A DNA stretch of 64,000 bases from Candidatus Moraniibacteriota bacterium (GCA_026396175.1 JAPLXG010000006.1:76492-140491); one strand, 5' to 3'; shown: positions 23,345 to 60,036, counted from the first letter of the stretch. The notes: generated by a model from the sequence alone, not told the origin. Translations and numbers: made by a program.

Positions 23345-23389
23345 TTCCCGCCAAGGCGGGATTCGCGAAGCGAATAACCACAAGATTGA
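23345..23389 (+). repeat. Family E element AATTCGTACGTTCCCGCCAAGGCGGGATTCGCGAAGCGAATAAC
   Basis: Hairpin TCCCGCC-N4-GCGGGA plus TTCGCGAAGCGAATAAC tail; 6 copies in window. Confidence 0.65.
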
Positions 23390-23602
23390 TTCTAGCATAG
23401 ATTCTAAAAAAAATGTAGAGACGTCAATTTATTGCGTCTCTGGTGGTATTTCTCGATTTAGACGCCTTAACGAGGCGTTTCCATAAAACGCCTATATAAA
23501 GCCCAAAATCCAGCGCTTGACATATTGCCTAAAAAGTGCTATTGTTACTGGAACAAAAATAACCGAAAATAACAACAAATAAACATCATCTCTGGAGGAT
23601 TT

Positions 23603-23962
23603 ATGAAGAAAAAGGAAGTTCTTAAGAATGCTTTTTTGGGAGTCCTGGTGGTTGCGATTCTGGTACTTGGCTATGCCTGGATGCACTACTGGAAAGTACA
23701 GCTTATTGAGAAACCAGTAGAGGCTAGAAGTGCTAGTATCCTATTGGATAAATTCATCAACGATCTTCAGGGAAGGTTAGACAACAAAAGTAGTCTTCTG
23801 AGCTGTGCGAAGGATCCTACTTGTCTGATCAAGGAAGACAGAAAAACATTTTCGGCCGAGGCAGAAATAGAGAGCCTCTCCAAAGAGGTTAAAGAGCTGG
23901 AGGACAAAATCCAACAGCTCAAAAAGGAAAAAACTGCGTTACTGGCAAAGAAATTGCCCTGA
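23603..23962 (+). CDS. Hypothetical membrane-anchored coiled-coil protein (119 aa)
   Basis: N-terminal TM helix; SD GGAGG 5 nt upstream; C-terminal coiled coil. Confidence 0.55.
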   Translation: MKKKEVLKNAFLGVLVVAILVLGYAWMHYWKVQLIEKPVEARSASILLDKFINDLQGRLDNKSSLLSCAKDPTCLIKEDRKTFSAEAEIESLSKEVKELEDKIQQLKKEKTALLAKKLP

Positions 23963-23987
23963 ACCTAGGGCGTGTAGCGAAAAAATA

Positions 23988-24020
23988 GAAGGGAGCGCTG
24001 GAATCTCACGCTCCCTTTTA
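23988..24020. terminator. Hairpin terminator GGGAGCGCTGGAATCTCACGCTCCC + TTTT
   Basis: Seen directly. Confidence 0.6.
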
Positions 24021-24069
24021 CAATGGAATTTTTCCAGTTAGCGAAAATATTTTACAATTTTCAAAAGAG

Positions 24070-24372
24070 ATGCTAGGGTTTTTGAATAAGGTTATTTGGT
24101 ACATTTCATTTCCAAAAACAATTATAAACGAAGGAATGGGGAGGGCAATTATGTTAGAAGCGTTCTGCATTGGAATAATTGGTTTTCTTGGTATAGGTGG
24201 GGGCATTGCCTTCGGCATTATTTTTGATTCTTTCCACGAATTCTCTGTTCGGGAAGTAAATCAGGCCGATGTTGATGCCACAATTAAATCTCTAAGGAAG
24301 AGAGGCGCCAGCACTGACTATCTGGATAATATCCAGAGGGGAGAGATCGAGCGCTTCACGAGGGTGATTTGA
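24070..24372 (+). CDS. Hypothetical small membrane protein (Gly-rich TM segment)
   Basis: ORF with IGIIGFLGIGGGIAFGIIF hydrophobic stretch. Confidence 0.45.
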   Translation: MLGFLNKVIWYISFPKTIINEGMGRAIMLEAFCIGIIGFLGIGGGIAFGIIFDSFHEFSVREVNQADVDATIKSLRKRGASTDYLDNIQRGEIERFTRVI

Positions 24373-24445
24373 AACAAGGGGAGTATGTCCAGCGAGGCAA
24401 GCTCCCCTCACTTTTTTTCTGGGAGGGTTATGTTAGAATGAGGTT

Positions 24446-25198
24446 ATGCTCAAAAAAACTAAAATTCAAAAAATAGCTGTTGTGCTTTTGGTGCTCGTTT
24501 TGATTGGGGCGCTTTTTTATTTTCGGATTTATGTCACAAGGAAAAAAGAGCAACTCGATCTCACTCGAATTAATAAGCAGGAGGTGGTTCAAGATGATGT
24601 TGTTAATCAAGATGCGGTTACGGATGATGAGGGAAAGGCAGATGATTTGCCGGAAGATAAAAGTGCGGATAATCAGCCGGATAAAATTTCAAAAAATAGT
24701 GTAAACACGGATGCTCTGCCAATTTCAAAAACGACGAAATTATCCATTACGGATCGCTTAGTATTTTGGGGTTTCCAAAAATCCTCTGGGCGAAAGATTG
24801 ACACGATTATTATCCACTCGTCGTATGACGCGGTGGGCAACGACCCTTACTCAGTGAGCGGGGTGATTGAGGAATATCGGTCCTATGGCGTTTCCCCACA
24901 TTATCTCATTGATCGCGCGGGAAAGATTTATCGACTTGTCTTCGATCAAAATATTGCCTATCATGCAGGAGAAAGCAAAATGCCGGATGGGCGCACGGGC
25001 GTGAATAATTTTTCGATTGGGATTGAAGTGCTCACAACGCTAAAGGATGCGCCGACCAATGCGCAGTATTCCGCTTTGAAACTTTTAATTGCGGATCTCA
25101 AGGGAAAGTATAAGATTACTAACATACTCGGTCATGGCCAGATCGCGCCGGGAAGGAAAGGTGATCCTTGGAATTTTGATTGGAGCAAGCTCAAGTAA
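24446..25198 (+). CDS. N-acetylmuramoyl-L-alanine amidase (Amidase_2 / PGRP fold) with N-terminal membrane anchor
   Basis: Amidase_2 zinc-ligand context (IIIHSS...H; HAGES; GHGQIAPGRKGDP). Confidence 0.8.
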   Translation: MLKKTKIQKIAVVLLVLVLIGALFYFRIYVTRKKEQLDLTRINKQEVVQDDVVNQDAVTDDEGKADDLPEDKSADNQPDKISKNSVNTDALPISKTTKLSITDRLVFWGFQKSSGRKIDTIIIHSSYDAVGNDPYSVSGVIEEYRSYGVSPHYLIDRAGKIYRLVFDQNIAYHAGESKMPDGRTGVNNFSIGIEVLTTLKDAPTNAQYSALKLLIADLKGKYKITNILGHGQIAPGRKGDPWNFDWSKLK

Positions 25199-25318
25199 AT
25201 TTTTAATTTTTAATTTTTCCGCCCGAGGCCGATGAGCCTTGGGCTCAAGCCTAGGGCTGGCAATTTTTAAATAATTTTTTAATGACAAATTTTTTGCAAT
25301 AAGAAGCTTTTTTTAAAT

Positions 25319-58281: not shown

Positions 58282-58299
58282 AAGCTTAAAGATAATTTT

Positions 58300-58551
58300 A
58301 TGGAGAGCCAAAAAGTAGAAAAGAATAAAATCATCACTCGCAAAAAAGGCGTGGTTGTTTCTGATAAGATGGATAAAACGATCGTGGTGGCGGTAGAAAC
58401 ATTGAAAACTCATCCGAAGTACAAGAAAAAATATCGTTCAACCAAGAAATATAAGGCGCATGACGGAGAGAATAAATATAAGATCGGAGATGTTGTTGAA
58501 ATCGTGCCTTGTAAGCCGATGAGTAAAGATAAAAATTACGTGGTAGTGTAG
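58300..58551 (+). CDS. rpsQ: 30S ribosomal protein S17
   Basis: KKGVVVSDKMDKTIVVAVETLKTHPKYKKKYRSTKKYKAHD. Confidence 0.9.
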   Translation: MESQKVEKNKIITRKKGVVVSDKMDKTIVVAVETLKTHPKYKKKYRSTKKYKAHDGENKYKIGDVVEIVPCKPMSKDKNYVVV

Positions 58552-58638
58552 CATGCGAAAGCGCGCTACGAACGCGCCCATCCGAATAAAAAATTTCGTA
58601 GATTCGTATTTAATTCGTAGTTTCGAATCGGTAAATAT
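58552..58638 (+). repeat. Family B spacer unit (g)
   Basis: GCATGCGAAAGCGCGCTACGAACGCGCCCATCCGAATAAAAAATTTCGTAGATTCGTATTTAATTCGTAGTTTCGAATCGGTAAATAT. Confidence 0.75.
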
Positions 58639-59004
58639 ATGATACAAGCAGAATCAAAATTAAATGTCGCGGATAATAGTGGCGCAAAAGTCATCAAGTG
58701 CTTCAAGGTGCTTGGTGGAACAAGAAGAAGGTTTGCTCGGATCGGTGACGTTATCGTGGCAAGCGTAAAATCAGCTGAACCGCGAGGAATGGTGAAAAAA
58801 GGCGATAAGGTACGCGCTGTGATCGTGAGACAAAGAAAAGAATTTCGTCGCAAAGACGGATCATATATTCGTTTTGATGAGAATGCCGCTGTGATTGTGG
58901 AAGCGAAAGAACCGAAAGGCACACGAATTTTTGGACCGATTGCGAGAGAGATTCGTGATCGTGGTTATGCGAAAATTGCGTCGCTGGCACCAGAGGTACT
59001 ATAG
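58639..59004 (+). CDS. rplN: 50S ribosomal protein L14
   Basis: [17 protein letters not shown]...GDVIVASVK. Confidence 0.95.
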
Positions 59005-59095
59005 GCATCAGAAAGCGCGCTACGAACGCGCCCATCCGAATAAGAAATTTCGTGGATTCGTATTTAATTCGTAGTTTCGTATCGGTATAAATTAT
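59005..59095 (+). repeat. Family B spacer unit (h)
   Basis: GCATCAGAAAGCGCGCTACGAACGCGCCCATCCGAATAAGAAATTTCGTGGATTCGTATTTAATTCGTAGTTTCGTATCGGTATAAAT. Confidence 0.75.
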
Positions 59096-59401
59096 ATGAA
59101 GATTAAGAAAAACGATTTAGTTAAAATGCTCGCAGGAAAAGACAGTGGAAAAACTGGAAAGGTTTTGCGTGTTTTCCCGACTGAGAAAAAAGTGGTTGTC
59201 GATGGACTGAATATGCTGAAAAAACATAATAAACCAAAAAGAGAGGGCGAAAAAGGTCAAAGAGTGGAAATCCCAAGAATGGTTGATATTTCCAATACGA
59301 TGCTTGTTTGTCCAAAATGTGGAAAAGCGGCTCGGATCGGCTATAAGACAGAAGGCGATAAGAAAATTCGCGTGTGCAAGAAATGCAAAGCGGAAGTATA
59401 A
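59096..59401 (+). CDS. rplX: 50S ribosomal protein L24 (KOW domain) with C-terminal CxxC...CxxC zinc-ribbon extension
   Basis: KKNDLVKMLAGKDSGKTGKVLRV; C-terminal CPKCGKAARIGYKTEGDKKIRVCKKC. Confidence 0.9.
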   Translation: MKIKKNDLVKMLAGKDSGKTGKVLRVFPTEKKVVVDGLNMLKKHNKPKREGEKGQRVEIPRMVDISNTMLVCPKCGKAARIGYKTEGDKKIRVCKKCKAEV

Positions 59402-59421
59402 ATTTGGATTTAATTTTAAAG

Positions 59422-59970
59422 ATGAATATGTCAAAAATTTACGAAAAATATAAGACCGAAGTAGCAGCTGAGATGAAGAAAAGTCTCAAGCTGAAAAATG
59501 ATTTGCAAGTGCCAAAGATTGAAAAGGTAGTTGTAAACGTTGGAATCGGAAAATTTATCAAAGACTCTGCGCTCGTTGCTGATATTTTCAATTCTCTAAA
59601 AGCGATTACTGGGCAAAAACCGGTGATGACAAAAGCCAAGCAATCGATTGCCGGATTCAAAACGCGAGAAGGATTGGAAATTGGAATTAAGGTGACACTG
59701 CGTGGAAAACGAAAATGGGATTTCTTGGAAAAATTAGTCGGCGCTTCAATTCCGCGCATTAGAGACTTTCATGGAATCAAGGTTGGTGCAGTTGATAAGG
59801 GCGGAAATCTGAACCTTGGAATTAAAGAGCATTTGATTTTCCCGGAGATTCTGCCAGAACAAGTCAAAACCATTTTTGGAATGCAGGTAAATGTTGTGAC
59901 GAATGCTAAAAACCAAGAAGAAGGAATGATGCTATTTCGATTGATGGGATTTCCTATTGAAAAAAAGTAG
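59422..59970 (+). CDS. rplE: 50S ribosomal protein L5 (start at ATG 59422 or 59428)
   Basis: VPKIEKVVVNVGIG...FRGL-like region; ORF track start 59374. Confidence 0.9.
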   Translation: MNMSKIYEKYKTEVAAEMKKSLKLKNDLQVPKIEKVVVNVGIGKFIKDSALVADIFNSLKAITGQKPVMTKAKQSIAGFKTREGLEIGIKVTLRGKRKWDFLEKLVGASIPRIRDFHGIKVGAVDKGGNLNLGIKEHLIFPEILPEQVKTIFGMQVNVVTNAKNQEEGMMLFRLMGFPIEKK

Positions 59971-60036
59971 TTATTCGCTTCGCGAACCCGTACTACCTGC
60001 CTACCGGCAGGCAGGCGAAAACGGGACATACGAATG
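59971..60036 (-). repeat. Family E element in inverted orientation with family C REP (59996-60015) inserted in its hairpin loop
   Basis: Reverse complement reads ATTCGTATGTCCCGTTTTCG|REP|TAGTACGGGTTCGCGAAGCGAATAAC. Confidence 0.65.

Follow-up and report, generated by a model that had tools for sequence, protein, structure and literature searches.

The stretch of DNA considered here, referred to throughout as the window, comprises 64,000 nucleotides (nt) from a Candidatus Moraniibacteriota bacterium (GCA_026396175.1 JAPLXG010000006.1:76492-140491) and carries, among other genes, rpoB-rpoC, ftsK, tuf and the S10-spc operon. Between these genes lie copies of a short, structured repeat, which we term family E, and some of these run directly into the start codon of the next gene. 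Homologues of the RplB and RpoC encoded in the window likewise indicate a Moranbacteria genome, although an exact look-up of its RplB returned no record. An earlier note, made from the sequence alone, had taken the copies for a transposable leader or a structure associated with ribosome entry, which might replace the Shine-Dalgarno (SD) sequence for a subset of essential genes. We describe below the copies in the window and their counterparts in other genomes, and weigh what such a repeat may be doing at the 5' edge of genes.

Family E in the window

A search for the 17-nt tail TTCGCGAAGCGAATAAC allowing up to three mismatches found six sites in the window, a number reached by none of 100 shuffled sequences. 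Likewise, a covariance model trained on 35 copies of the family and then run on the window returned exactly six strong matches, all of them intergenic, and Pfam searches confirmed the identities of the adjoining genes. The six sites share a layout in which (A)ATTCG-N-A/T-G-T is followed by a GC-rich hairpin with a variable loop (hairpin A), by TTCGC-GAA-GCGAA (hairpin B) and by a TAAC tail:

Copy 1: 23336-23378 (from the covariance model), plus strand, an orphan in a divergent intergenic region
Copy 2: 31489-31534, plus strand, of the consensus type (loop GTTCGTAGT) and separated by TTT from the rpoC ATG (31538)
Copy 3: 36140-36182, plus strand, followed by A and the ftsK ATG at 36184
Copy 4: 52269-52314, plus strand, in the tuf-rpsJ gap, with a compensated hairpin B (TTTGC-GAA-GCAAA)
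Copy 5: 54731-54773, plus strand, filling the rplW-rplB spacer and abutting the rplB ATG (54774)
Copy 6: 59974-60035 by the covariance model (the sequence itself reaches 59970), minus strand, inverted, with stem CCCGT/ACGGG

The tail AATAAC lies 0 nt from the ATG of rplB, 1 nt (A) from that of ftsK and 3 nt (TTT) from that of rpoC, so that reading the individual sites bears out the fusion to start codons described in the earlier note. Its statement that these genes have no SD is also correct, there being no GGAGG-like motif before any of the three ATGs; GGAGG is present ahead of several other window genes, which indicates that the organism is able to use an SD. In the rplW-rplB spacer, the rplW stop codon (54725-54727) is followed by hairpin A at 54741-54756 (TCCCGC/GCGGGA), hairpin B at 54757-54769 and the TAAC tail at 54770-54773. 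An AT-rich 5' module lies directly upstream of copy 2 (~31468-31488) and of copy 3 (~36119-36139), the hairpin B of the latter being degenerate (TTCACAAGGCGAA).

Copies 1 and 4 are not leaders. Copy 1 is 23 nt from the ATG of a minus-strand open reading frame (ORF) at 22962-23312; ORF 23603, 224 nt downstream of the copy, has a TTGACA box and a GGAGGA of its own. Copy 4 lies 49 nt 3' of the tuf stop codon and ends 114 nt 5' of the rpsJ ATG (52429), 7 nt upstream of a promoter-like TTGACG-17-TACAGT site; given its place upstream of this S10 promoter-like site it is not an rpsJ leader, and so the position upstream of rpsJ that had been noted is right but not the function that had been read into it. 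The AAC end of the inverted copy 6 overlaps the rplE stop codon TAG (59968-59970) and a 19-nt palindrome, CTGCCTACCGGCAGGCAGG (59997-60015), is nested in its hairpin A loop, in agreement with the earlier note, which describes one inverted copy with a REP insertion. The hairpin stem, which had been described as conserved, is not uniform: copies 1 and 5 have TCCCGC/GCGGGA and copy 3 has CCCGC/GCGGG, whereas CCCCC/GGGGG is shared by copies 2 and 4 and copy 6 has CCCGT/ACGGG.

When the copies from other genomes are included, the family has the consensus ATTCGCATGTCCCGCATTCGTAGTGGCGGGTTCGCGAAGCGAATAAC and a core of ~46 nt, which runs from 5'-ATTCGNATGT through hairpin A (with its GC stem) and hairpin B to (A)TAAC-3'; an AT-rich 5' module of ~20-30 nt precedes the core in some copies. 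The stem of hairpin A may be CCCGC/GCGGG, CCCCC/GGGGG, GCGGC/GCCGC or GCCCC/GGGGC, and that of hairpin B TTCGC/GCGAA, TTTGC/GCAAA (in copy 4 and in a tandem array at the locus L045), TGCC/GGCA or TCGCC/GGCGA. On an alignment fitted to the model 98.3% of cells are paired, double changes occur at nine of the ten pairs, none of 500 shuffles matches this and no slid register comes close. Outside the stems, the unpaired 5' ATTCGNATGT is conserved, as is the loop motif TTYGTAG, which is kept in hairpin A where insertions are otherwise tolerated; the GAA loop of hairpin B is constant among the variants listed, two divergent copies having GCA or AAA, and the tail is TAAC in most copies and AAAC or AAC in a few. 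Inserts of 10-90 nt occur in the loops of both hairpins, among them an inverted copy belonging to a sister subfamily.

Several other structures were considered and rejected. A closing helix between 5' ATTCG and 3' CGAAT is preferred by single-sequence folding, yet the hairpin B variants lose CGAAT while keeping ATTCG. A short upstream ORF starting at an internal ATG is not preserved, as copies of 46, 47, 57, 65 and 83 nt keep no common frame and the window copies have ACG, AAG or GTG in place of the ATG. An intrinsic terminator does not fit either, with no T-run on either strand and one incidental hit only. Rfam 15 gave no hit at the gathering threshold for the window, none at E ≤ 1 for four element-bearing loci and none at E ≤ 10 around copy 1, and the known families considered (ribozymes, tRNA-like elements and ribosomal-protein leaders) were thus discarded for want of a match. 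We found no published description of family E, whether by exact sequence or by topic.

Start-codon anchoring and turnover between genomes

One genome per species (185,579 species) was scanned for the exact 20-mer GGRTTCGCGAAGCGAATAAC, yielding 70 loci, nearly all of them in metagenome-assembled genomes (MAGs) labelled Patescibacteria, Falkowbacteria, Moranbacteria or Parcubacteria. Within these 70 loci the covariance model recognised 94 copies, which are intergenic. The family was found in ~25 genomes of the candidate phyla radiation (CPR) besides that of the window, and it is an undescribed interspersed repeat of CPR/Patescibacteria genomes. Two high-GC matches to the 20-mer, in Pirellulaceae and Alcanivorax, have no recognisable 5' half and look like chance occurrences. 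Full copies are also present in MAGs labelled Gammaproteobacteria/Bdellovibrionales (L009, L017, L023, L026, L028, L031, L042, L065 (CAZZBC01) and other 'binchicken' MAGs; L007 and L025 (CAZFCX01)). As these carriers have a GC content of 38-48%, and one of their S19 proteins is 66% identical to that of the window, we suspect mislabelling; the labels are probably wrong and the bins likely CPR. Three related viral contigs held no start-adjacent copy and are uninformative.

Sense copies overwhelmingly end, with AAC, 0-3 nt from the ATG of the next gene. Taking the 94 copies together with the six in the window, 52 of 100 have the ATG of an ORF of at least 40 codons 0-6 nt downstream, most often at 2 nt ('AAC tt ATG'), compared with 3.1% of random positions in the same loci and 2.6% of intergenic positions (P about 1e-51). 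The outcome that would have told against the earlier note, a majority of copies lying away from starts, is therefore not what is seen. In 36 of 41 cases the ATG is nearer to the element than the upstream stop codon is (medians of 2 and 13 nt; p = 8e-7, even with the 5' module counted into the element), and this asymmetry, along with the intergenic null, led us to reject the idea that ATG adjacency is solely a by-product of short spacers. Between co-directional genes the ratio of sense to antisense copies is ~7:1; some seven other copies are inverted, with the AAC end sitting on the stop codon of the preceding gene (AAC followed by TTA, the reverse complement of TAA followed by GTT). The downstream genes are diverse housekeeping genes of 93 Pfam families, including those for L2, L22, L17, S19, L5, L24, L36, RRF, EF-P, FtsK, YidC, a DEAD-box helicase, NrdR, glycosyltransferases and TrmB. 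A start-adjacent copy makes up the final ~46 nt upstream of the AUG, and the genes concerned are intact, SD-less and for the most part essential.

Close relatives of the window's organism provide the same gene junctions with the repeat missing. At rplW-rplB, relatives L074-L077, among them those with RplB identities of 96%, 88% and 86%, have AT-rich spacers of 17-24 nt with neither module nor SD. At rpoB-rpoC, five relatives (L078-L082; 89-97% RpoC identity) have spacers of their own, 43-278 nt in length and free of the module, with a 3' segment conserved among four of the five. Upstream of ftsK, relative L080 (8890-8943) reads TGATAAACT-TGTTTT-ATG with no module; in the window (36098-36186) TGCTAAACT-AGTCTT is kept and is followed by an insert of ~74 nt, made up of the AT module and the core, before the ATG. 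The L080 sequence has an extended -10 six nt before the ftsK ATG, from which a leaderless mRNA is predicted. Promoters of Moranbacteria resemble the extended -10 TGnTAAACT, and the S10 operon has a conserved TTGACG-17-TACAGT site (window 52321-52349). At tuf-rpsJ, the module is absent from L074 and L076, where the TTGAC box is conserved. After rplE, L074 has an inverted copy at the same place as copy 6, with a different hairpin A and no nested palindrome. Overall, one copy was counted in ~117 kb of the relatives' loci, against six in the 64-kb window. It would appear, then, that the native spacers of rplB and rpoC have been replaced in the window and that an apparently leaderless ftsK has been turned into a leadered gene.

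These comparisons also bear on the suggestion that the module replaces the SD, which we could not uphold. Relatives without the module have rplB, rpoC and ftsK behind short AT-rich spacers that also contain no SD and, since neither is present there, the module is no SD substitute; these organisms appear already to initiate translation of all three genes without one. In keeping with this, the unpaired parts of the module hold no GGAGG-like stretch and no complementarity to the canonical anti-SD. A search of the fetched loci for a 16S rRNA 3' end with which the module might pair found no 16S gene.

Turning to the way the family is distributed within and between more distant genomes, the module precedes rplB and ftsK in JAGLYP01 as it does in the window, although the proteins are just 57% and 49% identical. 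We rejected ancient orthologous conservation as the explanation, because close relatives have no module at these genes, and so these copies represent independent gains. Subfamilies are genome-specific, with the loop ATTTGTAGTT in JAHIME01 and ATTCGTAGTG in QMNH01. In JAGLYP01 a derived 65-nt variant carrying an insertion is found at six loci, each time adjoining the ATG of a different gene, from which it follows that copies beget copies and that new copies land on starts again. Nested inverted copies are present in three loci. At L045 (3636-3831, minus strand) four tandem variants of family E with a 50-nt period, and with hairpin B as TTTGC-GAA-GCAAA, span the whole stop-to-ATG gap before a TrmB-family regulator gene. 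The family spreads within genomes and turns over fast between close relatives, and on sequence grounds it looks to be a mobile repeat rather than an ancient leader. The earlier description of a transposable leader has thus gained support from the multiple copies, their absence at the same junctions in close relatives, the genome-specific subfamilies and the anchoring to starts in other genomes. That family E is a mobile structured repeat anchored to start codons is the claim in which we place high confidence.

Two further measurements concern what a start-adjacent copy brings with it. The first, which is the one that bears on the ribosome-entry structure of the earlier note, is the predicted accessibility of the start region: across positions -4 to +12 the mean unpaired probability rises from 0.51 for shuffled elements to 0.62 for the natural one, with the natural value higher in 42 of 49 start-adjacent copies (p = 6e-9), although these 49 are nearly identical to one another and so are not independent samples. 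The second is a TAnnnT box, which peaks at -4 in 36 of 85 copies and, as a -10-like TAnnAT, straddles the first two bases of the element.

The repeat ecosystem around family E

The window holds an ecosystem of repeats based on the unit TACGAAT/ATTCGTA, of which family E is one member. The density of TTCGTA is 3.9 per kb in intergenic and 0.09 per kb in coding DNA, a difference of ~40-fold, and TACGAA at 2.8 and 0.24 per kb respectively. The coding density of the window, 83%, is low for a CPR genome, which we attribute to this repeat load.

The S10-spc operon is a clear case. Between 55608 and 59095 a module of 87-125 nt occupies seven consecutive junctions (rplB-rpsS, rpsS-rplV, rplV-rpsC, rpsC-rplP, rplP-rpmC, rpsQ-rplN and rplN-rplX), starting directly 3' of the stop codon with a hairpin, GCGCGC-TACGAA-CGCGC, flanked by CATCCGAA(A/T), and closing with TTCGTAGATTCGTATTTAATTCGTAGTTTCGTATCGGTA, a fourfold TTCGTA array that finishes 8-12 nt 5' of the next ATG. 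The same junctions have spacers of 3-28 nt in the relatives with 88% and 86% RplB identity, and different palindromic TACGAAT/TACAAAT arrays in the 96% relative, from which we conclude that the invasion of the operon is recent and has happened more than once. Read as their reverse complement, the hairpins that follow the stop codons are similar to the 5' half of family E.

The mini-palindrome found in copy 6, which we call D7, is present six times in the window (10135-10153, 21559-21577, 31377-31395, 42635-42653, 55627-55645 and 59997-60015). Four of the six are placed exactly in TAC^CGAA (TTCG^TAG on the family E strand) and a fifth adjoins TTCGTA, positions which point to site-specific insertion into the TACGAA motif, including its occurrences in the loops of other repeats. 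Between rpsG and fusA, a 133-amino-acid GxxExxY/PDDEXK_3 gene for a PD-(D/E)XK nuclease is inserted at 45608-46009. It is flanked (45581-46063) by 36-nt inverted TACGAAT arrays which are 97% complementary, the right arm stopping 4 nt before the fusA ATG, and this unit is a candidate autonomous element for the TACGAAT-array repeats. A tblastn search for a homologue near family E copies elsewhere (83 other loci, ~640 kb) found none. Four palindromes resembling miniature inverted-repeat transposable elements (MITEs), at 3748-3863, 38554-38678, 52771-52888 and 61725-61847, have TACGAAT/TACAAAA-type arms of 33-41 nt set 42-49 nt apart, and they look like internally deleted relatives of the 45581-46063 element.

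The window holds further repeats of other kinds. Another family with two hairpins (CTCTCCC-TTCG-GGGAGAG..., then CCTTCTCCC-NNNN-GGAGAAGG, then GGATAT) is found at 6009-6182, 7551-7729 and 25317-25485, directly 5' of tig, clpP and ORF 25501, with the predicted clpP ATG lying inside the repeat. A 97-nt direct repeat pair, 76% identical (41231-41327 and 42719-42815), and a 56-nt inverted pair 46 kb apart (16480-16535 and 63002-63057), which is based on GGTTCAGG...CCTGAACC hairpins, are further repeat families.

Interpretation, alternatives and comparison with known systems

Taken as a whole, we read family E as a mobile, portable leader akin to repetitive extragenic palindromic (REP) sequences and MITEs, a reading to which we would give a probability of about 0.55; the passive mechanism that we propose for it is held with less confidence than that. 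A sense copy would be transcribed as the last part of a 5' leader or of an intercistronic spacer. Modelling of the fold suggests that the module would then act as a portable and insulated leader, in which the two hairpins fold on themselves and so leave the start region accessible, together with the tail AAUAAC(UU), which is A-rich and unpaired. With the start region accessible, the SD-independent initiation native to these organisms would still work, and insertions of this kind would survive for that reason. Copies with the 5' module would in addition bring a -10-like TAnnAT box, placing the transcript 5' end at hairpin A, so that promoter, 5' stem-loop and leader might travel as one cassette. 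The presence of hairpins, the conservation of TTCG-type motifs that are unpaired and the missing target-site duplication suggest that the mover may be a single-strand DNA nuclease or transposase acting in trans.

A number of observations weigh against this reading or limit how far the data can be taken. The copies from other genomes were collected by an exact 20-mer covering hairpin B and the tail, so the conservation of that half of the element is overstated; the flanks of the hits contributed 18 extra copies without the exact 20-mer and seven with it. The alignment used to assess covariation had itself been fitted to the covariance model, and the tally of nine G-T wobble pairs against four A-C mismatches does not tell whether it is RNA or DNA that folds, nor which strand. 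A simple sigma-70 scan calls no promoter in the 5' module and, with the -10-like TAnnAT box alone enriched, a full sigma-70 promoter there was rejected. As regards mobility, comparison of filled and empty sites at rplB, ftsK, rpoC and tuf-rpsJ showed no target-site duplication, although the flanks have diverged and short duplications are possible. The family has no consistent terminal inverted repeat, and no transposase was seen in the window or in the loci examined. The copies at rplB and rpoC look like replacements of the entire native spacer rather than clean insertions into it. Finally, passive tolerance on its own does not fully account for the start-anchoring of very recent copies, and this leads one to think either of insertion aimed at starts or of an active part in initiation.

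If one considers an active role, the module could be a dedicated SD-independent initiation element which recruits ribosomes and has spread through the benefit to its hosts, an explanation that we consider unlikely as it stands. Its hairpin B might mimic a helix, or provide a standby site, on the platform of the 30S subunit, or else the UUCG-type motifs might be bound by an initiation factor or RNA-binding protein peculiar to the CPR. The 3' end of hairpin B is 4-8 nt from the AUG, at the site of the normal SD:anti-SD helix; the hairpin covaries around a constant GAA loop and TAAC tail, and the 0-3 nt spacing to the ATG is found even in very recent copies. The wholesale replacement of native spacers in the essential, SD-less rplB and rpoC, that of rpoC being 113-158 nt long and conserved among relatives, the gain of a leader by a probably leaderless ftsK which must still be translated, the strong bias to sense orientation and the frequency of ribosomal-protein and translation-factor genes among the hosts all sit well with such a role. 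It is harder to reconcile with the expression of the same genes in close relatives that have neither module nor SD, with the ~40% of copies away from starts (some of them inverted on stop codons), with the broken hairpin B of the ftsK copy and with the lack of complementarity to the canonical anti-SD. Start adjacency could also follow from the insertion mechanism of a purely selfish single-stranded DNA element with no expression role, which would favour, for instance, TTA/TA beside ORF ends or single-stranded DNA at starts, and whose hairpins and TTCG^TAG-type motifs would be recognised and cut by a trans-acting enzyme, either a nuclease or a transposase (HUH/RAYT-like or PD-(D/E)XK, RAYT being the REP-associated tyrosine transposase); we hold this to be possible, if rather doubtful. 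T-T-A follows the AAC end in both contexts, as TTA-TG at starts and as the reverse complement of TAA at stops, and the placing of four of the six D7 palindromes exactly at TAC^CGAA marks this as a recognised DNA site. GCGAAGC is a classic ultra-stable DNA mini-hairpin. The nested and tandem copies, the insertions falling in hairpin loops, the patchy occurrence of near-identical sequence across distant CPR lineages and the window's GxxExxY gene between inverted TACGAAT arrays are also what a selfish element would lead one to expect. However, no such enzyme was found next to any copy, the GxxExxY homologue being absent from the fetched loci noted above, several start-adjacent junctions have no TA (AAC-ATG, AAC-cATG), TTA is so ubiquitous in these AT-rich spacers that it cannot by itself account for the anchoring, and the excess of sense copies, at 7:1, speaks for some transcription-linked constraint.

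Two further explanations seem to us weaker. A role in RNA processing or stability is improbable; here RNase Y or RNase J would cut the AU-rich region 5' of the hairpins, so that operon transcripts would be split into stable single-gene mRNAs, each shielded by a stem-loop at its 5' end. The window does encode an RNase Y, the hairpins are found on the 5' flank of cistrons within operons, the -10-like box would likewise put hairpin A at a transcript 5' end, and 5' stem-loops stabilise mRNAs in organisms with RNase J/Y, as in cggR-gapA, but a stabiliser needs no gap of 0-3 nt to the AUG and the inverted and orphan copies would go unexplained. Least probable is a double-stranded DNA operator or promoter signal, such as the site of a dimeric regulator at TTCGCGAA. 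Although TTCGCGAA is a perfect palindrome and a -10-like box marks the 5' border of many copies, covariation has taken both stems to very dissimilar sequences, which is not the way of protein half-sites, loops take insertions of 20-90 nt, copies within operons fill the entire stop-to-start spacer and the sigma-70 scan was negative.

It is also conceivable, though we think it on balance unlikely, that family E is a portable ribosome-entry cassette, in which ~46 nt of RNA suffice for an SD-less start at an AUG 0-3 nt downstream, or a mobile element that targets start codons. We know of no described bacterial precedent for either. Were it a ribosome-entry cassette, hairpin B would perhaps fill the pocket in which the 30S subunit takes up the SD helix, or the UUCG motifs would be read by a protein specific to the CPR, and the module would have spread among genes and CPR lineages because it confers expression; were it a start-targeting element, the insertion machinery would recognise the 5' edge of start codons. 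In either case, if the docking turned out to come from targeted insertion or from active recruitment of ribosomes, the mechanism would be new. The occurrence of family E is of interest in that the CPR/Patescibacteria are regarded as highly streamlined and yet the most conserved operons here (rpoBC, S10-spc and str) have been invaded by structured repeats, family E among them, at nearly every gene junction. The same gene with and without the module in close relatives offers a natural experiment on SD-less initiation in an uncultured phylum, and 46 nt plus an AUG make a compact candidate part that is directly testable in reporters. The family may also serve as a practical marker for the annotation of start codons and repeats in CPR genomes.

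Among known systems, some can be set aside at once. A gene-specific leader or riboswitch is at odds with the 93 Pfam families downstream and with the absence of the module upstream of the same genes in close relatives. An integron attC site does not fit, as the tail GAATAAC does not match RYYYAAC, the pairing of the 5' and 3' ends is lost in variants and no integrase was seen; a DNA-uptake sequence is not compatible with the structure and its covariation. In the Beggiatoaceae, arrays of the TAACTGA heptamer place short motifs in the 5' and intergenic regions of many unrelated genes across distant lineages, and a post-transcriptional role has been proposed for them (PMC4679880). The TTCGTA/TACGAAT arrays of the window and the TTCG-type motifs of family E resemble these, although family E is a discrete two-hairpin unit rather than a simple tandem array. 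In structured ribosome-binding sites that are split or independent of the SD, such as the T4 gene 38 hairpin and leaders bound to the 30S platform (rpsO, for example), a stable hairpin also lies directly 5' of the start in such a way that initiation can still proceed, and in family E it is hairpin B that takes the position of the would-be SD helix. Those sites, however, belong to single genes, are not mobile and mostly still use an SD. Putative mobile promoters, which Matus-Garcia et al. reportedly described in 2012, are identical upstream sequences before non-homologous genes, within and between genomes. They are defined solely by sequence identity of the 5' region, whereas family E has a covarying fold and a fixed junction with the ATG, and also occurs inside operons as copies without the promoter-like module.

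The closest likeness is to the short interspersed repeats. REPs and bacterial interspersed mosaic elements (BIMEs), which in Proteobacteria are mobilised by the RAYT, a Y1 HUH transposase, are like family E in being short, GC-rich, extragenic and multi-copy hairpins that form mosaics with other motifs, that have covarying stems, a GTAG motif and other small palindromes nested in them, and that are co-transcribed with their neighbours. REPs are extragenic, multi-copy imperfect palindromes of 20-40 nt, and the six window copies and the 94 others agree with this in being intergenic and in having two covarying hairpins. A conserved GTAG/GGAG tetranucleotide stands immediately 5' of the REP palindrome; the GTAG conserved in family E is enclosed by hairpin A, as part of the loop sequence ATTYGTAG, and does not precede a palindrome. 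There is no organisation into REPIN-type inverted pairs, as copies are mostly singletons and inverted pairs occur only as the nested copies in three loci. Unlike REPs and BIMEs, family E consists of two tandem hairpins with conserved unpaired motifs and is found in CPR genomes of ~1 Mb, with no RAYT seen in the window or the loci examined; it is also strongly polar and docked at start codons, while REPs lie mostly at 3' ends. MITEs such as Correia/NEMIS in Neisseria, BOX and RUP in pneumococcus, and ERIC, are likewise non-autonomous, co-transcribed, structured, modular and sometimes tandem, may carry promoter elements and differ in presence or absence between strains, as family E does between related genomes. 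They are, however, 100-150 bp in length, as opposed to ~46 nt, with long terminal inverted repeats and TA duplications, and they are not known to abut start codons at 0-3 nt. The nearest thing to a terminal inverted repeat in family E is the 6-nt ATTCGC/GCGAAT, which is lost in the hairpin B variants TGCC..GGCA and TCGCC..GGCGA while the 5' ATTCG is kept. Family E therefore behaves like a repeat of the REP/BIME or MITE type that would be co-transcribed and carry expression signals; it does not pass as a classical MITE and fits the REPs only in part, and its two unusual properties are the near-identical sequence over distant CPR lineages and the docking at start codons.

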